NCBI GenBank assembly: GCA_946555465.1
Contig: CAMNST010000003.1
Location: forward strand, 64,226-128,225
Direction: 5' to 3'
Source of the DNA: an uncultured Clostridia bacterium
GTDB lineage: Bacteria; Bacillota; Clostridia; Oscillospirales; Acutalibacteraceae
Length of the DNA stretch: 64,000 nucleotides
In this document: positions 29,617 through 64,000 of the stretch, piece after piece
How positions within the stretch are numbered: position 1 is the first letter of the stretch
Layout: each line of letters opens with the position of its first letter
The notes under the pieces: model-generated
Told to the model about the DNA's origin: nothing
Seen by the model: the letters and a program-made list of their open reading frames with translations, nothing else
Database searches by the model: none
Position numbers and translations under genes: made by a program

Positions 29617-29645
29617 ATTATAACAGAGTGTTATAATAATGTTTA
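29617..29645 (-). promoter_or_regulatory. Candidate promoter of the DUF4297-herA operon
   Basis: On the minus strand, an extended -10 TGT-TATAAT (29617-29625) with a weak -35 TAAACA 17 nt upstream. Confidence 0.4.
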
Positions 29646-30310: not shown

Positions 30311-30314
30311 TGCA

Positions 30315-30692: not shown

Positions 30693-30702
30693 AAAATTCT
30701 CC

Positions 30703-35104: not shown

Positions 35105-35116
35105 TTATTCCCACTC
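35105..35116. repeat. att core, guaA-proximal copy
   Basis: TTATTCCCACTC is the reverse complement of GAG TGG GAA TAA (guaA ...E W E stop). Confidence 0.7.
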
Positions 35117-46220: not shown

Positions 46221-47052
46221 ATATATCCGTCCTCAACATTCGGTTTGATATTTGTGATTTCAGCGGAATGCTGAATTGAAGGAGAAAGTGCCTTAATCAT
46301 TTTTCTGCCGTCTTTTTCAAATCGGTGCTGAATGTGATACGGTTTTGAAAGAAGATTTTCATTTTTGCTTTCAAGTTCAAAGACCTTTCCGCCTGCTTTT
46401 TCCTGAATTTCCGTGCATGTTCCCGAACCTATGATTTTTCCGTTATTCATAACAATTATGTAGTCACACAGTGCTTCAACATCCTCAACAATATGTGTTG
46501 AAATGATAACAATATGACTATCTGAAAGAGTAGATATAATGTTTTTAAATCTGAGTCTTTCTTCCGGATCAAGCCCGGCTGTTGGTTCATCAAATATTAT
46601 AATTTCGGGGTTGTTTAAAATTGCCTGTGCAATTCCGAGGCGTCTTATCATTCCTCCTGATAGGTTTTTACTTTACTGTTAAATTGTTCGCTGAGATTCA
46701 CAATTTCAATACAGCGTTCAATTTCTTTTTTTATATTATTTTTAGGCACTTCTTTTATTGCTGCCATGGTTTCCATCATTTCACTTACTGTCAGTTCGCG
46801 AAACAGTCCGTATTTTTGCGGTAAATAGCCAAGATTTGAAAAATAACTTTTATCATCGGTTATATTTTTATTATTGTAGAATATTTTACCGCCATTAAGT
46901 GGGTATAGTTGAGTTATGCAGCGTATCAGTGTTGTTTTTCCGGCACCGTTAGGACCGAGAATACCATATATTCCTTTTTCAAATTTGTAATCTATACCTT
47001 TAAGAACTTCTTTTTTCCTGAACTTTTTTGTAACATTTTTTAGTTCAAGCAT
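46199..47052 (-). pseudogene. ABC transporter ATP-binding protein interrupted by a single-nucleotide frameshift
   Basis: The upstream ORF carries Walker A GPNGAGKTT and stops at ...KVKTYQEE. Shifting one frame at 46651-46668 (gtaaaaacctatcaggagga) restores [16 protein letters not shown], which continues into the Walker [13 protein letters not shown] of the downstream ORF. Confidence 0.75.
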
Positions 47053-48940
47053 TGTTGTCACCGCCTGTCAAAAATTCTTCAACACTTCTTGTGTCATTTT
47101 CATCCGTGCAGAATGCAGTTATATTTTTCAGTCCCTCTTCTTCTCCGTATTTGTCAATATATGATATAAAGAGTTTTGCAAGACTGCCGTCTTCCTCCTC
47201 TTTTGCCTGCTCTCTGGCATAATCGGGATCTTGCTTATAATTCATATTGCAGTACATAAATAAATCATATCTTTCCGGAAGAGGAATTTGGGTCCAGTAA
47301 GAAGACGGAATTGAAATAATCTGCTCCGTTACGATGTGGTCTTTGCAATCGGCGTACTTATTGTAAGGCGAGATTAAATTTATATTTGGTATAGCAATAA
47401 TGGTTTTTACCCCGTCTTTAATTGATGGTTTTCCCTTATATTTTGTAACTGTATTGTTTATAACTTCCGGGGTATCTGTAGGGTCCATAAACGGGTAAAT
47501 AATTTTTATGCCGTCAATTTCTGTTTCTTCATACAGACCCGAAACTAAAGTTGCGCCTGTTCCGTTTCCGATGAAATGGTTTTTATCGGTTTCTTCAAAA
47601 TTGCAGTATGTTTTTTGTAAACCGTTTACTTTAATATCAAAACTTGTATTTTCATCAAAGAAGAACCGGTTTATGCCCTGATGATTTCTGTCATATACAG
47701 GCGACCATCCGCTGTGGGGAAGATAGGGAAAATAAGCGGGAAGAAATATGCCTTGTGAGTTTGTGTAAAACTGCGGTGAATATCCGCTGTATGTCATTAA
47801 GATTTTGCTGAGTTGCGATTCGTTATAAACCGTTATGCAGTCGCCGTTTTGTTCAAAATCAAGATGATTTTTGTTTTCGTCGGTCACTGCTTTCAGTTTG
47901 TAACCGTGGTAAAGCGTAAAACAGTATTCTTTTAAATTTGTTTTATCAACTGTAACACTTACTTTTGCTCTGAGTTTTAAGTCTGCTGAAAGTTGTGCGT
48001 CACATTCGGTAATTGAAAAGTCCGCTTCTTTTATCTGAATATTTTCGGCATTTTTCTCATCTGAATAATATTCATAATCTGCCATAACGGAGTCTATTGG
48101 GTTATCGCTGTTCCTTTTGACTTTTGATGAAGGAACAAGGCAGGTAATAAAACATATTGCCGCCAACATAAAAACAGGCAGTTGCTTTAGGTAATTTTTA
48201 TTTGTTTTTGGTATGGACATTTTGCAAAGTGAAAGTGCAATCAGAAAAAAGCACCAGAAAAAAACAGTAATCCAACGGTATGGAAGAATGGAATGACCAA
48301 GTGCGTAAACCGGTCTCCAGGTAAGATCGGGAGTGAAAAAATCAAATAAATTGAAAAACGGCGTAATATCAATCCCATTTCCCTCCGCATAAATCAATAA
48401 GCCTATATCGTTGAACATAGGACTGCTTATAAGGCATATGAGAACAAGCATCAGATATGCGTTAAGACGTTTTGCAATAAGAGAGAAAAACAAACCGAAA
48501 CATGCGCCCATTACAGGGATAAGAAAATAGTTGAGCAAGGCACCTGCAAGGACCTGAATAATCAGTTTTTCGTTCATCGCATTATTTACAATGCAGAGAA
48601 GTACTTCAAATACAATCATAAGAAGCGTAAAGACACTGATGAGTATAGTGAAAAAAACGAACTGTACGGCTAAAAATTTTTTATAACCTTTACCGGTGCA
48701 TATAAGTCCTTCTTCCATATGGCAGTTTCTGCATTTACTGAAAAATTCAAAAGCGAGAAATGCAAACAATATGAAAGCAAATAAAGACATTTGGATAAGG
48801 CAGCCTTCAAGTGCAAGATAATGCCCTCTCTTGGTATTATGGATTCCATAGCAAACTGTAAAAATTAAAAATAAAACATACGGCACCAAAAGTATGATTG
48901 AACGCCGAAAAATTTTATTCGTTGCTTTAAATACTGTCAT
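47045..48940 (-). CDS. Large membrane protein: N-terminal multi-TM (permease-like) region plus a ~350-aa extracytoplasmic domain
   Basis: 631 aa. About 8 TM segments in the first 270 aa, then a soluble domain of unknown family. RBS aggaaagg. Confidence 0.6.
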   Translation of the reverse strand: MTVFKATNKIFRRSIILLVPYVLFLIFTVCYGIHNTKRGHYLALEGCLIQMSLFAFILFAFLAFEFFSKCRNCHMEEGLICTGKGYKKFLAVQFVFFTILISVFTLLMIVFEVLLCIVNNAMNEKLIIQVLAGALLNYFLIPVMGACFGLFFSLIAKRLNAYLMLVLICLISSPMFNDIGLLIYAEGNGIDITPFFNLFDFFTPDLTWRPVYALGHSILPYRWITVFFWCFFLIALSLCKMSIPKTNKNYLKQLPVFMLAAICFITCLVPSSKVKRNSDNPIDSVMADYEYYSDEKNAENIQIKEADFSITECDAQLSADLKLRAKVSVTVDKTNLKEYCFTLYHGYKLKAVTDENKNHLDFEQNGDCITVYNESQLSKILMTYSGYSPQFYTNSQGIFLPAYFPYLPHSGWSPVYDRNHQGINRFFFDENTSFDIKVNGLQKTYCNFEETDKNHFIGNGTGATLVSGLYEETEIDGIKIIYPFMDPTDTPEVINNTVTKYKGKPSIKDGVKTIIAIPNINLISPYNKYADCKDHIVTEQIISIPSSYWTQIPLPERYDLFMYCNMNYKQDPDYAREQAKEEEDGSLAKLFISYIDKYGEEEGLKNITAFCTDENDTRSVEEFLTGGDNNA

Positions 48941-49756: not shown

Positions 49757-50764
49757 TTATTTAGATGCTTCTTCAACAGCAACTGCACAAGCAACGGTTG
49801 CGCCTACCATTGGGTTGTTACCCATACCGATAAGACCCATCATCTCAACGTGAGCGGGAACTGAAGATGAACCTGCAAACTGAGCGTCACCGTGCATTCT
49901 GCCCATTGAGTCTGTAAGACCATATGAAGCAGGACCTGCAGCCATGTTATCAGGATGAAGTGTACGGCCTGTGCCGCCGCCTGATGCAACTGAGAAATAA
50001 GTTTTACCGTTTTCAAGAGCCCATTTCTTATATGTGCCTGCAACGAGATGCTGGAAACGGGTTGGATTTGTTGAGTTACCTGTAATAGAAACGTCAACGC
50101 CTTCGTGTTTCATAATAGCAACACCTTCAAGAACATCGTTAGCACCATAGCACTTAACTGCTGCTCTTTCGCCGTCTGAGAAAGCCTTTTCTTCTTCAAT
50201 TTTAAGGTCGCCTGTGTAGAAATCATAATCAGTTTTTACATAGGTGAAACCATTAATACGTGAAATGATATATGCAGCATCTTTGCCGAGACCGTTAAGA
50301 ATTACCTTAAGAGGCTCTTTGCGAACTTTGTTTGCTGTTCTTGCAATACCGATTGCACCTTCAGCAGCAGCGAATGATTCGTGACCTGCAAGGAATGCAA
50401 AGCATTTTGTGTCTTCGCTGAGAAGTTTTGCACCGAGATTACCATGACCGAGACCAACGTTTCTCTGCTCAGCAACTGAACCCGGAATACAGAAAGCCTG
50501 GAGACCGATACCGATAGCAGCAGCAGCCTCAGATGCAGTTGTTACACCTTTTTTGAATGCAACTGCAACGCCGAGTGTGTATGCCCAACTTGCGTTTTCA
50601 AAAGCGATTGGCTGAACGCCTTTTACGATAGCGTCAACATCAACACCTTTTGATAAACATAAATCTCTTGCTTCTTCAAGACTTGAAAGACCATATTCAG
50701 CAAGACATTTTTCAATTTTGGCAAGTCTTCTTTCTTTGCCTTCAAATTTTACATCGTTTGCCAT
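49757..50764 (-). CDS. GGGtGRT family protein
   Basis: 335 aa. It contains the eponymous motif in FSVASGGGTGRTLHPD. Confidence 0.85.
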   Translation of the reverse strand: MANDVKFEGKERRLAKIEKCLAEYGLSSLEEARDLCLSKGVDVDAIVKGVQPIAFENASWAYTLGVAVAFKKGVTTASEAAAAIGIGLQAFCIPGSVAEQRNVGLGHGNLGAKLLSEDTKCFAFLAGHESFAAAEGAIGIARTANKVRKEPLKVILNGLGKDAAYIISRINGFTYVKTDYDFYTGDLKIEEEKAFSDGERAAVKCYGANDVLEGVAIMKHEGVDVSITGNSTNPTRFQHLVAGTYKKWALENGKTYFSVASGGGTGRTLHPDNMAAGPASYGLTDSMGRMHGDAQFAGSSSVPAHVEMMGLIGMGNNPMVGATVACAVAVEEASK

Positions 50765-50782
50765 TCTATTGTCCTCCTTATC

Positions 50783-51475
50783 TTATTCTTCTCTTGGGTC
50801 AATATACTTTGCAGCGTTAGCAAAGCGACCGTAGTTGCCGATGTTTGCTTTATATGCTTCGTCAGGTGATACACCGTGACGGATATCTTCAAGCATTTTG
50901 CCGACTTTAACGAATTCATAGCCGATAACTTCGCCTTCTTCGTCAAGTGCCATGCGAGTAACATAACCTTCAGCCATTTCCATATAACGAACGCCCTTAA
51001 GTTTGGTTGAGAACATTGTTCCAACCTGTGAACGAAGACCTTTACCAAGATCTTCAAGAGCAGCACCGACAACGAGACCGCCTTCTGAGAAAGCAGACTG
51101 TGAACGGCCGTAAGCAAGTTGTTTGAAAATTTCTCTCATTGCAACGTTGATAGCGTCACAAACAAGGTCGGTATTAAGGCACTCAAGAAGAGTTTTGCCG
51201 GGAAGAATTTCTGCAGCCATAGCAGCCGAGTGTGTCATACCCGAGCAGCCGATTGTTTCAACAAGTGCTTCTTCAACAATACCGTCTTTAACATTAAGGC
51301 TGATTTTGCAGGCACCCTGCTGAGGTGCACACCAGCCAATACCGTGTGAAAAACCGCTGATATCGGAAATTTGATAAGATTTTACCCATTTGCCTTCTTC
51401 AGGAATGGGAGCCGGACCATGATGCGGACCTTTTTTTACAGTACACATCTGTTCTACTTCATTTGAATAGACCAT
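50783..51475 (-). CDS. NifU N-terminal-like iron-sulfur cluster scaffold-like protein
   Basis: 230 aa. The Cys-containing GIGWCAPQQGACKISL...IGCSGMTHSAAMA pattern is reminiscent of IscU/NifU-N. It lies directly upstream of the GGGtGRT gene. Confidence 0.75.
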   Translation of the reverse strand: MVYSNEVEQMCTVKKGPHHGPAPIPEEGKWVKSYQISDISGFSHGIGWCAPQQGACKISLNVKDGIVEEALVETIGCSGMTHSAAMAAEILPGKTLLECLNTDLVCDAINVAMREIFKQLAYGRSQSAFSEGGLVVGAALEDLGKGLRSQVGTMFSTKLKGVRYMEMAEGYVTRMALDEEGEVIGYEFVKVGKMLEDIRHGVSPDEAYKANIGNYGRFANAAKYIDPREE

Positions 51476-51975: not shown

Positions 51976-52026
51976 CAAAAAAACAGCAGTTTATCTGATT
52001 GATGAGATAAACTGCTGTTTTTATTT
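51976..52026. terminator. Bidirectional rho-independent terminator
   Basis: A 13-bp stem, acagcagtttatc (51983-51995) paired with gataaactgctgt (52006-52018), flanked by A and T runs. Confidence 0.85.
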
Positions 52027-52043: not shown

Positions 52044-53246
52044 CTAATTAAGTGTAAGTTTCGGATAATCGTTTTTGGTCATATTAATTACCTGACGCAA
52101 TTCTGCAGATTTTGTTTCAGCCTCGTCTTCAGGCAGATTTTTTATTATATAAGAAAAATCTTTTGTATTTATAACACCGTCTTTTATATACTCACAGGCA
52201 AACATTTTTATAGGCTGGTCTGTAAAATCATTTTCGGATGCAGAGGCGGCTATAATTGCTGTAATAGTTCTGTCGATGGCATTGCTGCTGACGATTCTGT
52301 AGTCAACTTGGCCGGCAACCGCGGAGAATGTGTAGACTCCGTTTGCATCATTATATGTCTCAATAAGATTGTTGTTATTATATATTTTGGCGCCCTCAAT
52401 CGGATTTCCAAGATAATCAGTTACAAAAATTTTAACAGCATAAAGTCCGGGATTTATGATTTCAACGTGATAGTCTACAGTTTTATCAAAAACCTTAATG
52501 GTCATTACGTTGCCGTTGTATAACGGGTCTTTTGGCATATACCAGTGATTTTTTTCCTGATCACACGTATAACTTATGTAATAATCGCCAACCCGGTCTG
52601 ATCCTGTTGCAGATAAAACCGTTCCGTCTTTCAGCGTTATGGTAACCGTCATATTATTTAATATTCTGTTAATGTCATAAAGAAAATATCTATTGCCGGA
52701 TGAATCTGTTTTCCAACTGCCGTTTGTAAAAGCCTCAAGTTTTGTTGGGCAACTAACAGAAAGATCAATGATTGCACCATCGCTGTCAAAACCTTCACAG
52801 ATGAGTTTAACCTTCATAAAACCATCGGTTCGTTTATCACCATCGCGCCAGCCTGCTTTAAAATAATAGCGAACTCCTTTTTCAAGATGATATGTAATGC
52901 AGAACTGGTATTTGTTTGGCTGACTATATTTTTCATTCTGATAATCGCTGTTCCCTTTGGAATAGGCAAGTTGCGTGTATGTTTTCATACCTGTTTCAGG
53001 ATCTTTTTCTTTTATAAACAGATATGCTTCGCTTGCCGGCAGATTATATGAAAGAAATGAGTAAGTTCCCGATTCTTCAGGGGTATATAAAAATGTTATC
53101 TGGTCATCTATACCGTCAATAACCGCACCATATTCCGAATCAAGTTTTACTATTTCAATAGATTTGGCGTAAGCGGTTAATGAAAAGGCAAGTGAAGACA
53201 AAATTATCGTAACCGCCAAAAACAGGGAAAAAATTTTTTTGTTCAT
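52044..53246 (-). CDS. Secreted protein with a CarboxypepD_reg-like beta-sandwich and a degenerate dockerin-like C-terminal segment
   Basis: Signal peptide MNKKIFSLFLAVTIILSSLAFSLTAYA. Its C-terminal module (VKIFVTDYLGNPIEGAKIY... then IKDGVINTKDFSYI) parallels the C-terminus of the adjacent CotH protein. Confidence 0.65.
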   Translation of the reverse strand: MNKKIFSLFLAVTIILSSLAFSLTAYAKSIEIVKLDSEYGAVIDGIDDQITFLYTPEESGTYSFLSYNLPASEAYLFIKEKDPETGMKTYTQLAYSKGNSDYQNEKYSQPNKYQFCITYHLEKGVRYYFKAGWRDGDKRTDGFMKVKLICEGFDSDGAIIDLSVSCPTKLEAFTNGSWKTDSSGNRYFLYDINRILNNMTVTITLKDGTVLSATGSDRVGDYYISYTCDQEKNHWYMPKDPLYNGNVMTIKVFDKTVDYHVEIINPGLYAVKIFVTDYLGNPIEGAKIYNNNNLIETYNDANGVYTFSAVAGQVDYRIVSSNAIDRTITAIIAASASENDFTDQPIKMFACEYIKDGVINTKDFSYIIKNLPEDEAETKSAELRQVINMTKNDYPKLTLN

Positions 53247-53279
53247 TTCACTTGCCCTCCAGCAATATTAATATTGTTT

Positions 53280-56200
53280 TTAACTATAAACAAATTCAGT
53301 TGTGTTTGTGTTTATGAAGTTTTCAAAGAATTGTTTATATGGTGAATATTTTTCATCTTTATTTATTATAGCATAATCTTTTGCATTAATAAAGCCATCA
53401 TTATTTACATCAAAAACAAGTAAAGGAACATTAACTGTTTCATCACCTGTTACGGAAGCGGTTATTGTTTTTTCAACAACTTCATTTCCTTTAAATGTAA
53501 TTGTATAAGATCTGTTTTTTACAAGTGCAAGATTAAGCAAGCCGTTTTCGTCTGTGGTTCCTTTTAATACGCCGTCAACATAAACATCAACTCCGCCGTA
53601 ACCATAAGTTCCGGTTGTTGAAGTTTTTGTTTCAAGAACGGTGGTATTTACAGTTACATTGTTTGGAATTCTTGTTCCGCTCAGATCAACCGAGTTTATA
53701 CCTGTGTTGCCTTTGGTTACAAGTCTGAGTTCATCGCCGTCAACACTTTCACCGCCGTTGATAAATAACTTGATATAAAGTTTTTCCCGGTTGCTGCATT
53801 CGGAAGGAAGATTAAAGTTGCTGTATGTTTCAATGGTTTTTGAAGATGCATCATTGCTGATTGCTCTTGTATTTGAGTTATCAACATACTTATAGTTTCT
53901 TCCGTCGGTACTGTAGGCAATACCCCAGTCACGAGGTCCGTTATTTGAACTTAACTGTTCAAGTGTAAGGGTAAGATTTTTAAATCCGAGTGTACTCGTT
54001 TCAATAAACCAGTAACCGTTGCCGTCAGGATTATCAAGTTTTCCTGTTGCGGTAAATGCATTGGTGTCGCTGTAAGCAACTTTAACACCGTAAGTTCCTG
54101 TGTATGAAAGGATTGCTTTGTCCGCTGCGTTTGGAAACATTGATAAAGTTCCGCTGTTTTCACCGCTGGTGTTTGAAACAGTAAGGAAATCAGAACTTAC
54201 AAATTTGCTGAATGGTCTTGTTGAATCGTTATAGTTGAATTTTACTACTGTGTCACCTTTGTAGTAGTAAGTCTGAATATTTACAGCACTTGACTCTTCA
54301 TCTTCTTCAACCCAGGTAAGAACTCTGTAAGGTTCCTGGTTTGCCGGATCAAATCCTTTTACGGTTGAAAGTTGAATTCCCGTTGCGGGGCAGATGCCGT
54401 TCTGAACGATTGAACCCTGAGAATCAACAACTGCATACTGTATCGGAAGATTGTCTGCACTTTTGTATTTTATAAAACCGTTGTCGCCGAAGTAAGATGT
54501 TGATTTGTTTGTGAAAGGCATTTTAAATTCGCCGTTATCTTCACCGGCAACAATTACATTGTTTACATAAAGATTGCCTTTTGAGGCGTTATTGTGAAGT
54601 TCGGTTCCGCCGAAAGTCATATTTTCTGTTGTTGCAAGTCTTATATAGAGTTCTCTTTGATTGCTGCAGGCGGCAGGAAGAGGAATATTTACAAATAATT
54701 TTTCCAGCATAAGATTTGCAGTAAGGGGCACGTCTGAAACTACATTATAGTATGTAATGCCGTCTGTACTGTACTGAAGCGTAAGGCTCTTAGGACCCTG
54801 TGCAGTTGTGTAGGCCATACAGGAGAAATTGATGTTTTCATAACCTGCTGTGCTTACTTTGTAGGTGAATCCTGAGTTTTCGCTCCAGAAAGCACCATCA
54901 TCAGGCGCAATAGAGAAAGAGCCGTTTTTATCATTCCACAAAGGAACATACTGTGATTTGCCGTCAGTATAAGCGGTCATTTTTCCGCTTTCGCCGTAAA
55001 CACCGCCGTTTGAATCAACGGCACCGTTTAAAACTTCTGTGCTGTATGTGTCATAAGAGAAACTGTTTATATTTACACCGGCAAATACAAACTCGGCAGT
55101 TACGCTTTCGCTGACAATATCTTCAAATTTTGCATAAGCGCTGATTGTTACACTGTCGGTTCCGACCTTTGCGGTTTTGGCATCAAACGGATTGAATTCG
55201 CCTGTATAAAGAATCGGTTCACTTCCGTTTATGGTGTAGTATACATCTGCACCGCCGTTGCTGTCGGTGATTGTAATATTGTTATCGCTGAAAACAGGTG
55301 AACCGTTTTCAGGTGTTATTACAGGGGCAAGCAGTTCGGTTACAACTTTAAGTGATGAACCGGTTACTTTTATGTTGTTTACAGATGCGTCGCCGCTTAA
55401 CTGGTTTACTATTGTGCTTGTTCCGTTGATTGCCATGTTTTCGCAGACAACCATTCTGATATAAACTTTGCTCTGATTGTCACATTCCTGTGGAAGTGCG
55501 ATATTATCAAATGCAAGTTCCATCGTTTTATTATTTATGATTGTATATGAGGATCCGATATCGGTGTAGGCTGCACCGTCAAGGCTGTACTGAAGTTTCC
55601 ATGCTCTCGGGCCCTTCTTTGTACCGCCGAGATTTGCGCTGAATTTTATTCCTTCAAATCCGAGGGTTGAAACAACGGTTTCAAAGTATGGATATTTTCC
55701 CCACGCAATAAGGTCATTCTTGGAGGTGCCCATTACAGGAGATCTGTCAGATGCAACCGATGTGTTGCTGTTCACATACAAATCCGAACTGCTTGACCAT
55801 TTTATCTGCGCATTGTTTTTTGCATCTACGCTGGCGTACAGATTTGCATCGCTCTGGTTTTCACCGCTTGTTGCAGTGTAATAATATTCAAGTCCGCTTG
55901 GGTCTGCAGTTGCAAGAGCAGTGTTGTCTGCTGTGTAATCGTAATCCCACGCAGCGATGGTCTTTGTATATCCTGTCGGTCTTGAACCGGCAAGAACTGT
56001 ACAGCCATTTGATGTTATGCTGCCTGTAAGGTTTACATTATCGCCCGTTGCGGTTACCGTGATCGTTGCACCGACATCTTCGGCGGTTGTTGTGTATGTT
56101 TTTTCTGTTGCACCTGTGATTGCCGAACCGTTTCTGTACCACTGATATGAATGTGAGGCCGGAAGTTCTCTTCCGTCACTTAATCTGATATCGGCTGTCA

Positions 56201-58502
56201 GAAGCATATTGCTGTATGCATTGCTTTCAATCTGAAGTGTGCAGGAGGATATATTTGTTTTTATAATGTTGAAGGTTTTGGTTGAACTGCCGCTGTATAT
56301 GCCGGCACCGTTTACCGTAAGATTAGCAGTGCCTACATTGATGTTATTGCTGTAGGAAAATTCATAGTCAAGACCTTCAGAAAGTGTTATGTTTCCGATG
56401 CCCGCTTTAAAGGTTTTAACGGTTGTTTTCGGTGTGATTTCATAACCTGTGTAATATTGGTCTGTAACGGGATCAATCGTTGCGGTACTTAAATCTTCTT
56501 TTGTTATCTGACTGTTGATCCATGTCTGACGTTCGTTCAGCCAGTTTGTCATACCATTTATATGGCTTTCTGTATCATAAGTGCTGTTGTTTATATCAAG
56601 ACGAACAGCGTTCATTGCTGCACTTTTTGAAACCGTTCTGATATATTCTTCGGCAGATTTCAATGTGCCTGTTTCATCAACTGCTTTTCCTGAAATAATA
56701 TCAACGGCAGGCGAAATATAAGCGTACCAATATTTTTCTGCATCACTCCAGAAATCCGTGCAGTTTGTTGCAAGTGCGCCATAGAAACTGAGAGGTGCTT
56801 GTTTGTCGGTTGAATAATTTGTTTCGTTGTCGTTTACTCTCCAGCGATAGATACGTGAATTTTTTGTATACCAGTCATCGCTTGATGTCCAACTGTGATT
56901 CCAACGTGTACCTGATTGGCCGTAACCGATTGAATTATCCATATCCCACATCGGACCGGCATACAGTTTTCCGTCAACAAGGTCAGAATCTTTGAAGAAG
57001 TAAGTTGATGATACAGATGAATCCATATTCTTGAAGAATTCCTGGGTCCAGTAATATCTTACTGCTGAATCTGCGTCAAGAATATCGCTCCATTTTTTGC
57101 CCTGATACTGTGTTGCAGGGGCAGGGTTCGTGATTTTGTGCTCGCCGTAAACTTTATCCTGTAAAATGCTGAGTCCGCTGCAATCGGTAGTTGTTGAAGT
57201 GCTGGGAACAATGCCTTTGTTATAAACAGATGAGCCTAAAGCGTAAAGCAAATCATAACTGTAATTTACCATTTGAGTTGAGACATAGTCGGTATTCTTA
57301 ATTACCCAACCCTGTCGGTTGTAAGCGCAGAAACCCGCATTTTCGGCAACCCATCTTTGGCTTATTTCAAGTTCATACAGATATCCTCCGGTGTAATCGG
57401 TGGGTTCTTTCAGAGAGGGGGAATACCTTTTGGCTGTAACGGTATGACCTGCTAAATTATATGTATTCGTACCGATTCTGTTCGGATTATAGGTTTCAAC
57501 TGTTGTTCCCGTTAAATCTTTGGGAAGAAGAATACCTGTTTCGGGATCAGTTGTTCCGTTTGCAATCTGAAGGTTGTCGTAAACATCGCTGATGTCAATT
57601 CGGTTTGATTTGATATCAACCTTTTCGGAAAGTTGGTATGAGCCCAAATACTGTTGGTTAACATATAAATCAACAGGTTTGCAGGTTGGCTGATATTTAA
57701 TTCCGATATATTTTGCAAAGTCATATGTAAGTTGGTTTTTAACAAGTGATGCGTCATTTGTATTGGCAAGCAGGCACCATTTTTTTGCCGAGCCCATGCC
57801 AAGAAGTGATGACGATATTGCAAGTTTAATGTTATAAGGATTTTTAATGTTTCCTGTATTCCAAGTACCATTTCCGCGTCCGCTCATTTTTTCCATAACG
57901 CCGCTGTAGTCAACTTTGCCGTTGGGCTGAACAACCATAATGGAACCGCTTTCAAAAACAGAGGTATCCGCACCGCCGAACTCGTTTTTTGCATTTGTTA
58001 TTTTTGAAAGAGAGCCTGATTCTGTATCAATATAAACGGTTCCGACCTCACCGCTTTTCATTACGGTAACAGAGTAATCTGCCGAATTGAGCGTTAGTGT
58101 TACCGCACGCTGAACACCGCCCTCGTTGATATCGGCAAAAATATCAGTGGGAACACCGCTTGTGATTGCGGTGCCGTCAATGGCAGCAGTGCCGTCAAAC
58201 CAGAAAGTCAGTGCAGAGCAATCTGCAGTTGACGGTAAAAACCAGTAATATTTTGAAGAACTGGTACTCCTTTTAAAAGGCTGAATGCCGCCGAGAGGCG
58301 CAAGTTTGTTGCCGTTTTTGAAATCTGTTATATCTGCTTGTGATAAAACATTTTCGGCATCTGCCCATATGCTTAAGTTTGAATTCTCAAGAGTAACCGG
58401 TGATTCGGCTGCATAAGAGGTGATTGGCGCTATTAAAAGAGAGGTAAGAAGTATTACCGAGACCAGTAATAACGATAAAGTTTTTTTCAGTGATTTTTTC
58501 AA
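53280..58502 (-). CDS. Giant secreted CotH kinase-family protein (1740 aa) with repeated beta-sandwich modules and a dockerin-like C-terminus
   Basis: Signal peptide. CotH core (GNGTWNTGNIKNPYNIKL, KKWCLLANTNDASLVKNQLTYDFAKYIG). Fn3-associated/CHB_HEX_C-like segment (ADVYYTINGSEP). Three paralogous ~180-aa modules (GPRAWKLQYSLDG / GPKSLTLQYSTDG / GPRDWGIAYSTDG). C-terminus FDVNNDGFINAKDYAII. TTG start after GGAGGTG. Confidence 0.85.
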   Translation of the reverse strand: MKKSLKKTLSLLLVSVILLTSLLIAPITSYAAESPVTLENSNLSIWADAENVLSQADITDFKNGNKLAPLGGIQPFKRSTSSSKYYWFLPSTADCSALTFWFDGTAAIDGTAITSGVPTDIFADINEGGVQRAVTLTLNSADYSVTVMKSGEVGTVYIDTESGSLSKITNAKNEFGGADTSVFESGSIMVVQPNGKVDYSGVMEKMSGRGNGTWNTGNIKNPYNIKLAISSSLLGMGSAKKWCLLANTNDASLVKNQLTYDFAKYIGIKYQPTCKPVDLYVNQQYLGSYQLSEKVDIKSNRIDISDVYDNLQIANGTTDPETGILLPKDLTGTTVETYNPNRIGTNTYNLAGHTVTAKRYSPSLKEPTDYTGGYLYELEISQRWVAENAGFCAYNRQGWVIKNTDYVSTQMVNYSYDLLYALGSSVYNKGIVPSTSTTTDCSGLSILQDKVYGEHKITNPAPATQYQGKKWSDILDADSAVRYYWTQEFFKNMDSSVSSTYFFKDSDLVDGKLYAGPMWDMDNSIGYGQSGTRWNHSWTSSDDWYTKNSRIYRWRVNDNETNYSTDKQAPLSFYGALATNCTDFWSDAEKYWYAYISPAVDIISGKAVDETGTLKSAEEYIRTVSKSAAMNAVRLDINNSTYDTESHINGMTNWLNERQTWINSQITKEDLSTATIDPVTDQYYTGYEITPKTTVKTFKAGIGNITLSEGLDYEFSYSNNINVGTANLTVNGAGIYSGSSTKTFNIIKTNISSCTLQIESNAYSNMLLTADIRLSDGRELPASHSYQWYRNGSAITGATEKTYTTTAEDVGATITVTATGDNVNLTGSITSNGCTVLAGSRPTGYTKTIAAWDYDYTADNTALATADPSGLEYYYTATSGENQSDANLYASVDAKNNAQIKWSSSSDLYVNSNTSVASDRSPVMGTSKNDLIAWGKYPYFETVVSTLGFEGIKFSANLGGTKKGPRAWKLQYSLDGAAYTDIGSSYTIINNKTMELAFDNIALPQECDNQSKVYIRMVVCENMAINGTSTIVNQLSGDASVNNIKVTGSSLKVVTELLAPVITPENGSPVFSDNNITITDSNGGADVYYTINGSEPILYTGEFNPFDAKTAKVGTDSVTISAYAKFEDIVSESVTAEFVFAGVNINSFSYDTYSTEVLNGAVDSNGGVYGESGKMTAYTDGKSQYVPLWNDKNGSFSIAPDDGAFWSENSGFTYKVSTAGYENINFSCMAYTTAQGPKSLTLQYSTDGITYYNVVSDVPLTANLMLEKLFVNIPLPAACSNQRELYIRLATTENMTFGGTELHNNASKGNLYVNNVIVAGEDNGEFKMPFTNKSTSYFGDNGFIKYKSADNLPIQYAVVDSQGSIVQNGICPATGIQLSTVKGFDPANQEPYRVLTWVEEDEESSAVNIQTYYYKGDTVVKFNYNDSTRPFSKFVSSDFLTVSNTSGENSGTLSMFPNAADKAILSYTGTYGVKVAYSDTNAFTATGKLDNPDGNGYWFIETSTLGFKNLTLTLEQLSSNNGPRDWGIAYSTDGRNYKYVDNSNTRAISNDASSKTIETYSNFNLPSECSNREKLYIKLFINGGESVDGDELRLVTKGNTGINSVDLSGTRIPNNVTVNTTVLETKTSTTGTYGYGGVDVYVDGVLKGTTDENGLLNLALVKNRSYTITFKGNEVVEKTITASVTGDETVNVPLLVFDVNNDGFINAKDYAIINKDEKYSPYKQFFENFINTNTTEFVYS

Positions 58503-58517
58503 TTTTGCACCTCCGTG

Positions 58518-60134
58518 TTATTTTGAAACGATTTTAAGTGTTGCCGAATTGCCTATGTATTTGTCGCCGTCAGGCGTAATTTCTTTTTCACCTATACCCT
58601 GAGGAGAAGATACTGTATAAGTGTTGTTTTTGGAGAGTTCCGGCGAAGAATAGAGGAATTTTCCGCATTTGTTGTTTGTGGTAACATCTATTCCGCTGCC
58701 GCTGATGTTGAACTGAATGTATTTTCTTGTTTCTTCTGCCGATTCTGATTTTGCAGAACGGATAAGGAAACTTACCTGGCTTGAAAGATTGTCTCTGTGA
58801 ATGGTAGAGAGGAAACATGTTTTGGTAACATTTTTGCCTTCACCCCATACGGTTCCGCCGTCAATCTTGAATACATGGGTGCTTTTTGTTACGCAGTCAT
58901 CTTCGTCGATATCCGCACCGTCGTTCCAGTCGTTCTGGTTGTTAAGGCGTCTTACCTTGAAAGAAGATTTCTGAAGCGCTATGGATGTAACTTCACCGCC
59001 TGTAATAACGATTGCGTCATCAGCATCAACGCCGTCGCAGGCACCTGAGTGGATATTGACCTCACCGCCGTAAACATATAAATCGTCACACCTGATTCCG
59101 TCGCCGTTTGATTTGATATTGAGTCTGCCGCTTTCAATATTGACTTTTCCGTAAGAGAAAATACCTCTTGAAGATGACATACTTGAAGTTGCCTGCCATG
59201 CTTCTGTTTCAAGATTAGCAGTAACATTTTTGAAAGTTACACTTTTTGTTGAGCAAAGGGCGTTGTTTTTATTTCTTGATGCTTTAAGGTTTAACTTTCC
59301 GTTACCTTTGATAGTGAGTTTTGACTCGTTGTAAATTACACCTGAAAAACTGTTTGCGCTTGTTTCAAAACTGCTTGTTGTTCCTGTCGGGAAAGAAAGT
59401 GAAACGTTTGGTGCGCTTTGCTGTTTTGAAAGAATTTTCATAGTCTGGCTGAGAACATTGTCCGCTGCTGTTCCGGATACGGTTTCTTCTTCAAAGAAAG
59501 TTCTGTCGGTAGTAATACTTGTGTCAAATATTTTAATAATACTCGGACTGTCGCCCTTGATGTTTACATTTTCAAATCTTACCGAAACTTCCTGTGTGTT
59601 GGGAACCTGAATAACAATCTGTCCGTGCCATACGTCGGTGGTTGATGTTATGGTGTAGTCACCCTGATTGTTTATGTAGCAGATTCCCTGGTTATCTTTG
59701 ATTGCAAACACAACATCTTTTGAACCGGTTTTTCCTCTGGCATTTTTCTCAAGAACAATTAATCCGCTGTCAAGACTTGCATCATAGTATTCATATTTGT
59801 TTGATGAAGAACCTGAATTTCCGCCGGAAGAGCCTTGGTTCTGAGGCGGCTGTTCACGCAGCGGCTGTTTTTGTGTGGTGGTTGTGTTGCTTTTTGCGGT
59901 TGTTTTTGCAGTTGTTGAAGTTTTTGCGGTTGTAGACGTTGAAGAGGGGTTTGTTGTTGAAACAACTTCGGTAACGGGTTTTCCGTTTTTATCGGTTACT
60001 GTTTCGCCGTTTTCATCGGTAACAACCACGGTTATCTCATCACTGTTTGCTTCTTTATCTTTGCTGCATGCCGCAAAACTGCAGGTTATCAGTGCCGAAC
60101 AAAGAAGAAGACATAGTATTTTTTTTGATTTCAT
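58518..60134 (-). CDS. Cthe_2159-like carbohydrate-binding beta-helix lipoprotein
   Basis: The internal ATG with a gggaga RBS gives MKSKKILCLLLCSALITCSFAAC (lipobox). There is a Thr/Ser-rich linker, then repeated beta-helix segments (GDGIRCDDLYVYGGEVNIHSG...DADDAIVITGGEV). Confidence 0.75.
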   Translation of the reverse strand: MKSKKILCLLLCSALITCSFAACSKDKEANSDEITVVVTDENGETVTDKNGKPVTEVVSTTNPSSTSTTAKTSTTAKTTAKSNTTTTQKQPLREQPPQNQGSSGGNSGSSSNKYEYYDASLDSGLIVLEKNARGKTGSKDVVFAIKDNQGICYINNQGDYTITSTTDVWHGQIVIQVPNTQEVSVRFENVNIKGDSPSIIKIFDTSITTDRTFFEEETVSGTAADNVLSQTMKILSKQQSAPNVSLSFPTGTTSSFETSANSFSGVIYNESKLTIKGNGKLNLKASRNKNNALCSTKSVTFKNVTANLETEAWQATSSMSSSRGIFSYGKVNIESGRLNIKSNGDGIRCDDLYVYGGEVNIHSGACDGVDADDAIVITGGEVTSIALQKSSFKVRRLNNQNDWNDGADIDEDDCVTKSTHVFKIDGGTVWGEGKNVTKTCFLSTIHRDNLSSQVSFLIRSAKSESAEETRKYIQFNISGSGIDVTTNNKCGKFLYSSPELSKNNTYTVSSPQGIGEKEITPDGDKYIGNSATLKIVSK

Positions 60135-60258
60135 TGAACATTTCTCCCTATATATGGACAAAACTTTAAAATAAATAACTAAATATGGAGATAAAAAATC
60201 TCTCAAAAAAACGCACTGAGGCAACAATAAAAACTGCTGCCTCACGGAAATATTCTTT

Positions 60259-60960
60259 TTATTGGAAATGAAAACTCTTTACAGCCGATTCGGGAGTAGA
60301 AAGCATAACTTTCAGATTTCCGTTCATTGCACGTACATCGTCAATCATTTCGCGCATCTGTTTTGAATCTTTCATACTGATGTCAAATGAAATTTCAAAT
60401 AAAGCACCAAAATCAACGCTCTTAACACGTGTCATCTTGTATCTTGTGCAATATTTGTTAAGACAATCGTCAAAAGCACCAACATAATTTAATGTTTCGG
60501 GAACTGTGATTTTAAGAATGTAATTTTCTGATTTCTTGCCTGCAAAATTTGCAAAATGGAGAATAAGAATAATTGCGCAGAGTATTACTGTGCCGAGAGC
60601 AGCCCAGATATAATATCCGAGACCGCAGGTAAGGCCCATTGTTACACTCATAAATACAAATGCTATATCTTTCGGATCTCCGGGTGCACTTCTGAAACGA
60701 ACAAGTGCAAATGCACCGGCAAGGCTGAATGCGGTGGCAACGTTATTGCCGATAACAAGAATTACCATGCCTACGATAGGGGCAAGAAGAATAAGTGCCG
60801 TGCAGAAAGCCTGGCTGTAACCTTCTTTTTTGTGAGTAAATAAATATACAAGGCTTATAACAATTCCTATAAGAATTGCCGAACCAAGGGTTAAGAGAAC
60901 ACCTTTGGCGTCAAGTGTGGCGCTGTCGCCTGATTGAAGTGCGTATAAAAAATCGTTCAT
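60259..60960 (-). CDS. DUF4956 domain membrane protein
   Basis: 233 aa. TM segments plus the characteristic LAGAFALVRFRSAPGDPKDIAFVF motif. Confidence 0.8.
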   Translation of the reverse strand: MNDFLYALQSGDSATLDAKGVLLTLGSAILIGIVISLVYLFTHKKEGYSQAFCTALILLAPIVGMVILVIGNNVATAFSLAGAFALVRFRSAPGDPKDIAFVFMSVTMGLTCGLGYYIWAALGTVILCAIILILHFANFAGKKSENYILKITVPETLNYVGAFDDCLNKYCTRYKMTRVKSVDFGALFEISFDISMKDSKQMREMIDDVRAMNGNLKVMLSTPESAVKSFHFQ

Positions 60961-60990
60961 ATGTAAATTCTCCTTAAAACTCTTAATTGT

Positions 60991-61773
60991 TTAACTGAAA
61001 CTGTCAAAACCGACTTCATTTCCATTTGCATCTGTCAGATGATAAATAAGCCGTTTTTCTTTAGCATCCTGTTTATACTTTACACCGTACTTTGAAAAAC
61101 CGTGACTGTAAAGTTCATTCTCGCTGAGCAGTCTTGTCAGCCAGAGCGGCATTGCACCCAGAATTTTTATTTCCATAATGTATTCGCCGCCGGGCAGTAA
61201 CAATTCATCATCTTCGCTTTCGCCGAAAACGAAATTTTTACGCCTTGTGCGCACATTTCTGTCAAATGTCATTCTGAAATTTTTATCTTCTTTGCCGAAT
61301 AAAGCAAGCCTGTCATACTGAACGTATAAAGCAGGATGAACTTTGTTTCGGCTGAAATAATATTTAAGTTCTTTTGCAACCTGTGCCGAAAGATAATCTT
61401 TTGTTTTCGGCATTATTCCTTCGTTTACAAAAGGCTCAATTTCTTTTATTTTAAGTTTAATTCTCCGCTTGTTGCCCTGACCTTCCGATTTCTTTTTTAT
61501 TTCCATAAAAACTTTGTCTTCAGGGTCTTTTCTGTCGTAATAAGAGCGTATGCGCATTTTTTCTTTATAGACAGGTTTGGAAGAATTCTGCCTTATAACA
61601 TCGTGGTTATCGGTGTCATAGTAAATGCTGTAAATTCTGTATTCATTTCCGTTAAGACAAAAAGGGTCAAGATCCATATGCTCAAGGAGCAAAGGAAGAA
61701 TTTTATCAAGTTTTTCCTTTGTTATCAGATACTTTTTTTCGTACCTTTTAAAGGTAGCAATAGCCAAATGCAC
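60991..61773 (-). CDS. VTC-domain (polyphosphate polymerase domain) protein
   Basis: 260 aa. FKRYEKKYLIT N-terminus and MEIKILGAMPLWLTRLL...SKYG C-terminus, typical of bacterial VTC domain proteins. The start may be the TTG 6 nt downstream (better RBS spacing). Confidence 0.8.
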   Translation of the reverse strand: MHLAIATFKRYEKKYLITKEKLDKILPLLLEHMDLDPFCLNGNEYRIYSIYYDTDNHDVIRQNSSKPVYKEKMRIRSYYDRKDPEDKVFMEIKKKSEGQGNKRRIKLKIKEIEPFVNEGIMPKTKDYLSAQVAKELKYYFSRNKVHPALYVQYDRLALFGKEDKNFRMTFDRNVRTRRKNFVFGESEDDELLLPGGEYIMEIKILGAMPLWLTRLLSENELYSHGFSKYGVKYKQDAKEKRLIYHLTDANGNEVGFDSFS

Positions 61774-61998
61774 ACCCCCTGTCTTTGTGTCATGTTAAAT
61801 TTGCGTAAAATGTCACCTAAATTATAAAATAATAATTTAGATAAGTCAATATAAATTATTAACATTTTAAGGCGTTTTTTGTCTATTATTGAAATTTTTT
61901 TATACAGGTGTACAAAAATCTGAAAACAATTAATTTATTGCATAAAGCAGACAGCAATGATATAATTGATTTGTATTATAAATATACAGGGGAAAATT

Positions 61999-62604
61999 AT
62001 GGCAAGGAAAGACGGAACTGACGATCTCAGAATAAAACGCACTCAAAAATCAATAAAAGAAGCCTTTTTTGATTTGTCTGAAAAAGTGGGCTTTGAGCAT
62101 ATTTCCGTAAAAGATATTACCGATTATGCCGGAATAAGCCGAAATACCTTTTATCTTCACTACAGTGATAAATATGATTTGCTCAACAGAATTTGTGATG
62201 AACTTATGAGGATTCTGTTTTTCAGAGTCGGCAAACAACTAAGAAGGGCGCAGAGAGGCGATTTTTCGGTTGAAAGGGTTGCCGCTGTAATTAAACTGGG
62301 TCTTTCGGCAGTTGAGGATAATAAAAGATATTACAAAATTCTTTTATCGGATTTTGGTGCGGACATACTTCTTGAAAAAATCAGTCAGATTATACGTCTG
62401 TGTCTTAATCTGGTGAAAAACGATATTGATATGCTCAGTGAATATTCGCTTGAGTATATTGTAGACGGAATGACGGGTGTTATCAGATACTGCGTTATGC
62501 ATAATGTTGAAAATACGGAAAACGAATGTCTTGCTTTTACAAAAATTCATCTCGGCAGTATTATTAATGCTGCAAATGAAAAAGAAAAGAGAGTAAACGA
62601 ATGA
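61999..62604 (+). CDS. TetR/AcrR family transcriptional regulator
   Basis: The internal ATG after agggga. HTH region RIKRTQKSIKEAFFDLSEKVGFEHISVKDITDYAGISRNTFYLHY. Confidence 0.85.
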   Translation: MARKDGTDDLRIKRTQKSIKEAFFDLSEKVGFEHISVKDITDYAGISRNTFYLHYSDKYDLLNRICDELMRILFFRVGKQLRRAQRGDFSVERVAAVIKLGLSAVEDNKRYYKILLSDFGADILLEKISQIIRLCLNLVKNDIDMLSEYSLEYIVDGMTGVIRYCVMHNVENTENECLAFTKIHLGSIINAANEKEKRVNE

Positions 62605-64000
62605 GCCGCTCAAAAAAGCAAAAGGGTAAACGCAGTTCAAAAAACCTTAAAGTTAATACAAGAATTATTCTTACAACGGTTCTGGCAGTAGTTATTCCGC
62701 TTATCATTATTGTGAGTTTTTCAACCGTGCTCATATATAAAATTCCTGCATATCTTAACATTTCAACGGTAACAACCAATACCTACAGCACTGTAAATCA
62801 ACTTCAGTGGGCGCAGACACTTTCAAGTATTACCGCCGAACTTTCGGGTGATAACAGTGACGAGCGAAAATTAAATAACATAGACAAGTTTGTTACACCG
62901 CTGGAAAATTTTAATTCGCTTATCTATATTCAGAAAGACGACGAAGTGTTTTATTCCACTGCAGGTGCGAAGAACGCTTTGGAAAAGGCCAATGCCCTTG
63001 TTCCGGTTGATGTGAATGAAAATCTTAACTATTTTGGCGAACGCGGTCTGGTAATTGTCAATCATGCCAAGTGCGGTGAAGAGAATTATCTGATTGTTAT
63101 TGTGAATGAGGATTATGCCGTAAATGATATGGAGCAGAAGATTAATGTTCAGGATTTTACAAAACTTCTTCTCAGCCGTACGGGCATAGTTGTTTTAATA
63201 ATCATTCTGCTTTTTGTTGTTGCGATAGTTGTTATTTCGTTTATAACCACAAAAACGATTGTGAACCCGATTACAAAAATATCAAGGGGCGCAGAAGAAA
63301 TTGCACGCGGCAATCTGGATTATGAAATAGAATATTCTTCTACAAACGAACTGGGGCAGATGGTTGACAGTTTCAATAATATGAGACTGCGCCTTAAGGA
63401 ATCTATCGAAAAGCAAAATAAAATAGAAGAAGAACGAAAGGTTCTTGTTGCAGGAATTGCCCATGATTTAAGAACTCCGCTCACTTCGGTAAAAGGCTAT
63501 GCCGAGGGGCTTCGTGACGGTATTGCAAATACTCCCGAAAAAAGAGAGCGTTATCTTAAAACAATCTGCGAGTCAATAAATGATACCGAGAAAACACTTG
63601 ATGATTTGCTTACGGTGTCAAAACTGGAACTCAACGGTTATGAACTTGATTTTGAAGAAGTCGGTGCAAAGGAATTTTTCCTTGACGGTTCCGAGGAAAT
63701 AAGGCTTGCGCTTGAAAGTGAAAACTTTGATTTTATCTGTGAATTCAACTGCGGTGACGATATTGTTGTCAGCCTTGATACCGACAGGTTTGTAAGGGTT
63801 ATATATAATATTATTTCAAACAGTATTAAATATGCCAGAGAAGATGTTAAAGGCGAGGTCAGAATGTTTCTTAATGAATATGAACATTCCATTATCCTTG
63901 AAATTTCCGATAACGGTATAGGTGTAGACAAAAAAAGTCTGCCAAAGATTTTTGATACAATGTATCGCGCTGATCCTGCACGAACAAAGGTTTCGGGCGG
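62601..64000 (+). CDS. Sensor histidine kinase (3' end beyond the window)
   Basis: Hand-translated open frame (no stop before 64000). Two TM segments, HAMP (ITKISRGAEEIARGNLDYEI), H-box VAGIAHDLRTPLTSVKGY, N-box IISNSIKY, and G1 ISDNGIGV. The ATG overlaps the TetR stop (ATGA). Confidence 0.85.
   Translation, partial: MSRSKKQKGKRSSKNLKVNTRIILTTVLAVVIPLIIIVSFSTVLIYKIPAYLNISTVTTNTYSTVNQLQWAQTLSSITAELSGDNSDERKLNNIDKFVTPLENFNSLIYIQKDDEVFYSTAGAKNALEKANALVPVDVNENLNYFGERGLVIVNHAKCGEENYLIVIVNEDYAVNDMEQKINVQDFTKLLLSRTGIVVLIIILLFVVAIVVISFITTKTIVNPITKISRGAEEIARGNLDYEIEYSSTNELGQMVDSFNNMRLRLKESIEKQNKIEEERKVLVAGIAHDLRTPLTSVKGYAEGLRDGIANTPEKRERYLKTICESINDTEKTLDDLLTVSKLELNGYELDFEEVGAKEFFLDGSEEIRLALESENFDFICEFNCGDDIVVSLDTDRFVRVIYNIISNSIKYAREDVKGEVRMFLNEYEHSIILEISDNGIGVDKKSLPKIFDTMYRADPARTKVSG

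Follow-up and report, generated by a model that had tools for sequence, protein, structure and literature searches.

A pel-independent operon combining VTC-domain and DUF4956 proteins with a Cthe_2159-family lipoprotein and a 1740-residue CotH protein in an uncultured gut Clostridia bacterium

Organization of the operon

A 64,000-nucleotide stretch of DNA from an uncultured Clostridia bacterium of the family Acutalibacteraceae (contig CAMNST010000003.1, positions 64,226 to 128,225; referred to here as the window) carries at positions 52044-61773 five co-directional minus-strand genes that form a single operon. They encode a VTC-domain protein, a DUF4956 membrane protein, a lipoprotein of the Cthe_2159 family, a secreted CotH-family protein, and a secreted protein of 400 amino acids. 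An open reading frame (ORF) check located all of them at the coordinates predicted in the initial annotation, and Pfam matches confirmed its four family assignments (VTC, DUF4956, Cthe_2159 and CotH). The topology that it had proposed was also recovered, with a cytoplasmic VTC protein (no hydrophobic segment), a DUF4956 protein with five membrane helices, and three products predicted to be exported by means of a lipobox in the lipoprotein and Sec signals in the CotH and 400-aa proteins. The genes are separated by 30, 124, 15 and 33 nt; the value of 124 assumes that the lipoprotein gene starts at ATG 60134, and with this start the gaps previously given as about 15-125 nt measured 15-124 nt. The mechanical ORF of the lipoprotein runs on to GTG 60245, and ATG 60134 has a GGGAGA ribosome-binding site upstream. 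Judging by the sequence, this ATG is most likely where translation starts. The features of the locus are as follows.

60991..61773, minus strand: VTC-domain protein, 260 aa, cytoplasmic, predicted polyphosphate polymerase (PF09359, E 5e-47)
60259..60960, minus strand: DUF4956 membrane protein, 233 aa (PF16316, E 4e-17, 62.8 bits, cut-off 30.6)
58518..60134, minus strand: Cthe_2159-family beta-helix lipoprotein, 538 aa (PF14262, E 3e-17, 63.2 bits, cut-off 25.8)
53280..58502, minus strand: secreted CotH-family protein, 1740 aa (PF08757, E 3e-20)
56505..58055, minus strand: CotH kinase domain, residues 150-666 (PF08757, 73.4 bits, cut-off 23.8)
55359..55961, minus strand: CotH repeat module A, residues 848-1048, probable galactose-binding-like (discoidin/carbohydrate-binding module) beta-sandwich, low confidence
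54543..55073, minus strand: CotH repeat module B, residues 1144-1320, from a paralogy test
53667..54173, minus strand: CotH repeat module C, residues 1444-1612, from a paralogy test
53295..53606, minus strand: CotH C-terminal module, residues 1633-1736, CarboxypepD_reg-like sandwich with a dockerin-like D-x-N-x-DG-x-IN-x-KD calcium loop
52044..53246, minus strand: 400-aa secreted partner with a Sec signal peptide; the module common to it and CotH is residues 281-393 (52068-52406)
61821..61849, minus strand: putative sigma-70-like promoter TTGACT-17-TATAAT, identified only by 11/12 consensus matches, about 50 nt upstream of the VTC start
60217..60244, minus strand: hairpin between the DUF4956 and lipoprotein genes, 12-bp stem and T-run, pattern match only
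51979..52022, minus strand: bidirectional intrinsic-terminator-like hairpin, 18-bp stem and T-run, 22 nt past the stop of the 400-aa gene
61966..64000, plus strand: divergent TetR-family regulator (61966-62604), then a HAMP-HisKA-HATPase sensor kinase (62601 to the window end)

The promoter-like sequence sits inside the 192-nt intergenic region that separates the divergent VTC and TetR genes. With the strong terminator-like hairpin at the other end, it encloses the five genes. The hairpin at 60217-60244 is, from its sequence, a possible partial terminator or attenuator, and such an element could give the VTC-DUF4956 pair and the three genes for exported proteins different expression levels. 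A 1-nt deletion at 60193, in the spacer between the DUF4956 and lipoprotein genes, was seen in one metagenome contig, which is consistent with the spacer being non-coding. In relatives, the gene that follows the sensor kinase encodes a response regulator. This two-component system was not assignable to PhoR/PhoB or to any other named system, with every match under the curated cut-offs. It is of the envelope type and probably controls expression of the neighboring operon. The PADLOC models of defense proteins matched none of the five operon proteins.

The five proteins

The VTC protein matched PF09359 with 160.8 bits (cut-off 23) over 231 of the 235 model positions. A single-sequence search reached yeast Vtc4 at E 8e-5 only and identity is low; a profile built from 39 bacterial VTC homologues matched the Vtc4 structure 3g3q at E 3e-14. 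Mutagenesis established that polyphosphate (polyP) synthesis by Vtc4 needs residues K200, R264, R266, K281, Y359, R361, E426, S457 and K458 (bioRxiv 10.1101/2023.01.27.525886), the last of which is kept in the active Vtc4 and lost in the inactive paralogues Vtc2/3. In the hidden Markov model (HMM) alignment, K14, R74, R76, K93, Y153 and R155 of the window protein correspond to the first six of them (K200, R264, R266, K281, Y359 and R361). The counterparts of E426 (a metal ligand), S457 and K458 are E201, S227 and K228, assigned by motif and order only; in this C-terminal part an M-E-V-K stretch aligns weakly to M-E-I-K of Vtc3, and there is no significant residue-level alignment to Vtc4. All nine positions are invariant across the 39 homologues, the last three within the motifs E201-x-K203 and S227-K228. 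As far as these alignments indicate, the protein is a Vtc4-type triphosphate-tunnel enzyme that retains the residues required for yeast polyP synthesis, and it probably makes polyP. An exact-sequence look-up of the protein returned no match, and the nearest database proteins were 88-90% identical.

The AlphaFold2 (AF2) model of the DUF4956 protein (mean predicted local distance difference test, pLDDT, 90.8) consists of five membrane helices followed by a C-terminal beta-alpha-beta-beta-alpha-beta domain of the ACT/ferredoxin-like type. When this model was searched with Foldseek, matches were obtained for the C-terminal domain only, to ACT/IlvN-like folds. The motif AFSLAGAFxLIRFRSAPG contains an invariant R88, and G82, F89 and R90 are conserved in at least 90% of the sequences. 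Applying the positive-inside rule to the modeled helices would place R88 and R90 at the cytoplasmic end of helix 3. The MgtC family (PF02308) was matched weakly by 13 of 63 DUF4956 family members, all under the cut-off (best E 2.7e-5), and the window protein matched the NCBIfam MgtC model at a weak E of 0.003. This likeness agrees with the published description of the streptococcal DUF4956 homologue.

The VTC-DUF4956 pair resembles the yeast VTC complex in two respects. The tunnel domains are homologous, with the same triphosphate-binding residues and, by motif and order, the same metal ligand, and in both cases the catalytic domain is linked to a membrane component, in the bacterial pair genetically, which makes a coupled synthesis-translocation logic plausible. 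Unlike the yeast protein, the bacterial enzyme is free-standing and only 260 aa long; neither the SPX domain nor the fused C-terminal pore helices (DUF202) of eukaryotic VTC were found in the window protein by Pfam or hydrophobicity analysis. The membrane partner differs as well, since here it belongs to DUF4956, an unrelated family with a weak likeness to MgtC. In two predicted proteins of the database, P0298 and P0264, incomplete VTC and DUF4956 domains are fused. These were considered as Rosetta-stone evidence and rejected, because both domains are truncated; the entries are probably deletions or assembly artefacts, not natural fusions.

The N-terminus of the lipoprotein has an FAAC lipobox followed by a linker rich in serine and threonine. 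This protein shares the Pfam family and the beta-helix repeat pattern of Cthe_2159 (PDB 4PEU/4PHB), although similarity to the crystallized protein is marginal (E 0.026 to 4peu). The C. thermocellum protein has cellulose and polygalacturonate as ligands and is similar to PL9 lyases (PMC6712302). The window protein differs from it in being a lipoprotein with an S/T-rich linker, and in being genomically linked to VTC-DUF4956 and not to cellulolytic genes. The S/T/K-rich linker was examined as a possible CotH substrate and rejected as evidence, because such linkers are equally present in loci without CotH. Elsewhere in the window, a GH28 polygalacturonase-like gene is found at 38220-39599 (plus strand) and the gene at 10329-12725 (plus strand) encodes a surface protein of 798 aa that has five Listeria-Bacteroides (Flg_new) repeats. 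The organism probably handles pectin, which members of the Cthe_2159 family are known to bind.

The CotH protein is composed of a signal peptide, an N-terminal domain, the CotH kinase domain, an immunoglobulin (Ig)-like region, three modules resembling carbohydrate-binding modules (CBMs), and a C-terminal anchoring module. A single-sequence search of the PDB with the full-length protein found no match, and a profile was needed to match CotH of B. cereus (5jd9, E 8.7e-9). In the resulting alignment D494 (N-M-D motif) and D520 (W-D-M-D motif) correspond to D224 and D247 of 5jd9, which we take to be D228 and D251 of B. subtilis CotH on the assumption of a four-residue offset in numbering. Mutation of either D228 or D251 abolishes the kinase activity of the B. 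subtilis protein (PMC7821199). D520 shows no variation among 28 CotH homologues, conservation of D494 is 90% or higher, and by this alignment the window protein keeps both catalytic aspartates. On the alignments and motifs given here, the catalytic residues of both the VTC and CotH enzymes are conserved. The CotH domain and the aspartates are what it has in common with the Bacillus spore-coat Ser/Thr kinase (PDB 5JD9/5JDA). Unlike that protein, the window CotH is Sec-secreted and not assembled in the mother cell, is five times longer through fusion to the Ig-like region and the CBM-like modules, and has a kinase domain of 517 aa against 359, with about 150 extra residues present as insertions. 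No coat genes such as cotB or cotG were found in the neighborhood.

The C-terminal 1000 residues of CotH contain three paralogous modules of about 190 aa (z scores of 16-30 against shuffled sequences; 30 for A versus B and 19 for A versus C), for which there is no Pfam family. Foldseek searches with the AF2 model of module A returned F5/8-type-C, CBM32, CBM35 and CBM36 folds at E of about 1e-3. The pLDDT of this model is 66 overall and above 85 in its C-terminal half, and since only half of it is confident, the CBM-like assignment is tentative. The module also stands alone in another secreted protein (P0359), which has a signal peptide, one copy of the module and a canonical two-repeat dockerin, and it is therefore an autonomous extracellular domain. 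CotH itself has no two-repeat type I dockerin; it has one loop only, and Dockerin_1 scored 18.9 bits, below the cut-off of 22.9. This single dockerin-like loop is conserved in orthologues and occurs in the 400-aa protein too. The latter matched no Pfam family above threshold, CarboxypepD_reg being sub-threshold only, and its N-terminal region had no family match. That the two proteins have a C-terminal module in common, as the initial annotation had noted, was marginal by BLASTP (E 0.034) and became clear in the comparison of orthologue profiles by hhalign, which aligned residues 281-393 of the 400-aa protein with CotH residues 1633-1736 (probability 98.3%, E 2.6e-14).

Gene neighborhoods and related loci

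The co-occurrence of these families was measured from two sides. For the DUF4956 side, one genome per species was scanned; at least 572 stretches encode relatives, and the best 80 loci, nearly all labeled Clostridia and coming from the gut, were annotated by HMMs and clustering. For the CotH side, metagenome contigs were searched with an alignment of the CotH domain. Locus searches worked with narrower alignments, the broad ones (A2 and A1) being too diverse. The HMM of the Cthe_2159 family produced one confirmed false positive (an AhpC-like lipoprotein), and other 305-aa matches in the CotH-side loci look alike; counts for this family were therefore limited to true members clustered by BLAST.

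The VTC gene lies directly upstream of the DUF4956 gene in 70 of the 74 loci with enough upstream sequence. Among the 46 loci flanked by 5 kb or more on each side, VTC was present in 45, a Cthe_2159-family gene in 25 (about 54%), a histidine kinase and response regulator pair in 12 (about 26%), and CotH in 1, while 20 had neither Cthe_2159 nor CotH. Over all 80 loci CotH was found in 5, and a Pfam scan of 80 unlabeled downstream genes indicated that at most one CotH could have been overlooked. VTC and DUF4956 are thus a near-obligate pair and the robust unit of the locus. The Cthe_2159 lipoprotein is their commonest extracellular companion; the Cthe_2159-family genes beside the pair encode lipoproteins nearly always. 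CotH is a recurrent but facultative addition in some lineages. The recurrence of VTC, DUF4956 and CotH genes together, which the initial annotation had drawn from genome annotations, therefore holds for the first two, with CotH a minority partner whose link is weaker than assumed there; the families do co-occur, in layers.

At least four gene orders combine CotH with VTC-DUF4956, among them that of the window. In L027 the order is response regulator-histidine kinase-VTC-CotH-DUF4956, in L031 it is VTC-DUF4956-CotH, and L009 has a further order with CotH on the opposite strand; the small CotH proteins of these three loci are lipoproteins. Related gut bacteria have the cassette in the order of the window on at least 25 independent contigs, and it is thus not a chance arrangement. 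On the CotH side, 21 loci with a CotH at least 56% identical carry the cassette genes up to the contig ends, with one apparent exception (L104), and relatives with a CotH domain 56-72% identical keep the order VTC-DUF4956-Cthe_2159-CotH (about 1745 aa) wherever the contig is long enough. Close relatives mostly have the 400-aa gene, which is absent from L001 and L002, and mostly a divergent block of TetR, histidine kinase and response regulator genes or of the latter two only, while the outer flanks vary. The window DNA is near-identical to contigs of mouse, rat and other gut metagenomes, and the nearest named records are metagenome-assembled genomes (MAGs) of uncultured Oscillospiraceae or "Eubacterium sp."

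In neighboring clades, CotH proteins of 30-35% identity are fused to CBM6/35 and leucine-rich repeats (LRR) or to CBM26, several of them with a dockerin, and some lie beside a dockerin-bearing GH3 gene. In L109 and some 30 similar contigs from the human gut, the gene for a CBM6/35-LRR CotH directly follows one for a 1562-aa GH3-CBM6-FIVAR-dockerin protein. These arrangements suggest that glycan-degrading surface assemblies include some of the secreted CotH proteins.

The operon had been described at first as conserved but functionally undescribed. Its function is indeed undescribed in the literature searched, but earlier publications had listed the trio of cotH, polyP-polymerase and DUF4956 genes among the accessory genes of pel loci. 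Genes for CotH, a polyP polymerase, DUF4956 and DUF4832 are contiguous with the pel operons of streptococci, clostridia and bifidobacteria (Whitfield et al. 2020, PMC7112168). In S. intermedius, deletion of the cotH-like or the DUF4956-like gene led to less Pel and less aggregation; the authors of this 2025 study proposed roles in phosphate metabolism and reported no such synteny beyond pel loci (PMC12345266). The accessory set of this species (SIR_1592-1594) has the same three families side by side (a secreted CotH-like protein, a VTC-type polymerase, and a DUF4956/MgtC-like protein with an ACT-like domain), and the mutants point to a role at the cell surface. No pel, glycosyltransferase or other polysaccharide-synthesis genes were present in the window flanks or within about 10 kb in close relatives, nor were DUF4832 or GGDEF/EAL genes in the flanks or within 10 kb in relatives. 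The pel-free locus of the window and its relatives thus contradict the claim that the trio is confined to pel loci. Unlike the pel accessory set, the window locus adds the Cthe_2159 lipoprotein and the 400-aa partner, its CotH is 1740 aa long with CBM-like modules, and the order is VTC-DUF4956-lipoprotein-CotH.

The NELoc-2 locus of C. perfringens has been described with the arrangement VTC-"tubulin/FtsZ-like"-CotH-HEAT-GT2. We take the "tubulin/FtsZ-like" membrane protein to be DUF4956, in which case VTC, DUF4956 and CotH are clustered as in the window, within a locus of mostly membrane or wall proteins. NELoc-2 differs in having a duplicated pair of VTC and membrane-protein genes around a resolvase, a CotH of 497 aa, a chitin-synthase-like GT2, and no Cthe_2159 gene. 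Another C. perfringens copy, separate from that of NELoc-2, was found in a MAG (L014, 8224-13784) with the order VTC-DUF4956-response regulator-histidine kinase and a Cthe_2159 gene on the opposite strand. Taken with these published loci, the operon of the window is a pel-independent form of a known uncharacterized trio, with a lipoprotein, a giant CotH, and a partner that shares one of its modules.

Other parts of the window were inspected. Just downstream of the operon terminator, at 49757-51475 (minus strand), a gene for a GGGtGRT-family protein (PF14057, E 3e-194) is preceded by a 230-aa ORF with only a weak NifU_N match, and the two seem to be a conserved pair. Two overlapping minus-strand ORFs share between them an ABC-transporter ATPase (N-terminal part 46648-47061, C-terminal part 46199-46651), which suggests a frameshift or pseudogene; the 631-aa ORF upstream of it (47045-48940, minus strand) has no Pfam match. 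A low-GC block (0.30-0.36) at 26647-33951 on the minus strand encodes a tyrosine integrase (32860-33951), a MobA/VirD2 relaxase (30703-32082) and a HerA/FtsK-like ATPase (26647-28335). The block adjoins guaA (35105-36631), and it looks like an integrative mobilizable element inserted beside this gene.

A possible polyphosphate machine and its alternatives

The VTC and DUF4956 proteins very likely act as one functional unit. By analogy with the Vtc4 catalytic domain on the transmembrane pore of VTC, they may assemble into a complex on the cytoplasmic side of the membrane. Such a complex would polymerize phosphate from ATP, and the polymer or its phosphoryl groups would reach the outer face via DUF4956. 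Outside the cell, the Cthe_2159 lipoprotein would bind or process the polyanion, and CotH, where present, would phosphorylate surface or substrate-bound targets (S/T-rich proteins or glycans) near bound polysaccharide. Our confidence falls along this series, being highest for the complex, followed by polymerization from ATP, outward passage, and the action of the lipoprotein and CotH. The locus could provide no high-energy phosphate source other than polyP on the outside, and the use of exported polyP, or of another exported phosphodonor, by CotH would fit the topology. We propose, tentatively, that the operon encodes an envelope-spanning machine, in which polyP is made at the membrane and passed outward and the lipoprotein and CotH act on it or with it. 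In its favor are the operon structure, the conserved VTC and CotH residues, the near-constant pairing of VTC with DUF4956, the division into cytoplasmic, membrane and exported products, the conserved Arg pair of DUF4956, the frequency of Cthe_2159 lipoproteins as third partner, the recurrence of CotH in several gene orders, and the S. intermedius mutants. The export of polyP is a doubtful part of this proposal, and it is quite unlikely that CotH uses polyP as its donor. A bolder version, in which VTC-DUF4956 is a polyP synthase-translocase whose membrane fold differs from the eukaryotic VTC pore and which brings polyP to the outer face of the Gram-positive membrane, secreted CotH kinases use polyP and not ATP to phosphorylate surface proteins or polysaccharides, and Cthe_2159 lipoproteins are receptors or handlers of polyP, is decidedly improbable.

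Several observations weigh against the envelope-spanning machine. Concerning the membrane component, DUF4956 bears no relation to the DUF202 helices of the yeast polyP pore, Foldseek gave no known fold for its membrane part and nothing channel-like, and MgtC, apparently its nearest relative, has been described as a regulator and not as a channel. The link to CotH is facultative, since CotH is missing from most VTC-DUF4956 loci and most CotH genes of neighboring clades (about 59 loci for secreted proteins of 30-35% identity) have neither VTC nor DUF4956 within 10 kb. The characterized CotH, that of B. subtilis, was assayed with ATP (PMC7821199), and polyP as a donor is without precedent in the CotH family. 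No biochemical evidence for bacterial VTC, DUF4956 or secreted CotH was found in the searchable literature. Transcription of the operon could not be demonstrated either, because the sole "transcriptomic" run with the locus consisted of a flat 14.8-kb contig that includes both strands and intergenic DNA.

Alternatively, VTC-DUF4956 would make or regulate polyP inside the cell, with DUF4956 as an anchor or regulator, no export, and the exported proteins co-regulated only, for example under envelope or phosphate stress. MgtC, which DUF4956 weakly resembles, has been described as a regulator of ATP synthase and PhoR, and the ACT/ferredoxin-like fold at the C-terminus of DUF4956 is a typical small-molecule sensor. 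The 20 of 46 fully flanked loci without Cthe_2159 or CotH and the frequent adjacency of a two-component system point in the same direction. We nevertheless consider purely intracellular polyP rather unlikely, as it leaves unexplained why the commonest partners of the pair are extracytoplasmic lipoproteins or secreted proteins, why CotH stands between VTC and DUF4956 in L027, and why a soluble polymerase has an obligate membrane partner.

Another alternative starts from the exported proteins, which may be directed at polysaccharide. CotH would be a kinase of glycans or matrix proteins that uses extracellular ATP, or a mere adhesin without a donor; the role of the lipoprotein would be to bind or cleave acidic polysaccharide, such as pectin or matrix made by the cell itself; and VTC-DUF4956 would contribute indirectly, e.g., through phosphate or cation homeostasis. 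The Fam20C-family group of secretory-pathway kinases includes glycan kinases. CotH is distantly related to this family (PMC7821199), and Cthe_2159, with its affinity for cellulose and polygalacturonate, resembles PL9 lyases (PMC6712302). The three CBM-like modules of the window CotH, the sister-clade CotH proteins with CBM6/35, CBM26 or dockerin that neighbor a dockerin-bearing GH3 and have no VTC in their vicinity, the GH28 polygalacturonase encoded in the genome, and the effect of the trio on Pel levels in streptococci would all be in keeping with such a role. On the other hand, there is no evident source of ATP outside the cell, the 21 loci with a CotH at least 56% identical keep VTC, DUF4956 and Cthe_2159 (bar L104, as far as the contigs reach), and across the 80 species loci the Cthe_2159 lipoprotein follows VTC-DUF4956 and not clusters of carbohydrate-active enzymes. 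This explanation is, in our opinion, unlikely.

The superfamily of triphosphate-tunnel metalloenzymes (TTM/CYTH) includes triphosphatases and cyclases, and the VTC protein, with its low identity to Vtc4 (single-sequence E 8e-5) and its lack of the SPX and pore domains of eukaryotic VTC, could have another tunnel activity (a triphosphatase, or the handling of nucleotides or organic polyphosphates) in an operon unrelated to polyP, but this is very improbable, given the E of 5e-47 to the VTC family itself and the invariance of the Vtc4 polymerase residues, including, by motif and order, the equivalent of the K458 that the inactive Vtc2/3 have lost.

The envelope-spanning polyP machine would bear on questions beyond this locus. 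Bacterial polyP synthesis is generally credited to polyphosphate kinase (PPK), with VTC seen as the eukaryotic type. A VTC protein with an apparently full set of catalytic residues and a dedicated membrane partner points to a second, unstudied route of polyP synthesis in bacteria. If the polymer is exported, this would explain how kinases outside the cell are supplied with a phosphoryl donor, and it would offer a mechanism by which these genes influence Pel-dependent aggregation in streptococci. That the extracellular partner met most often beside the VTC-DUF4956 pair is the Cthe_2159 lipoprotein, and not CotH, changes the experimental priorities.

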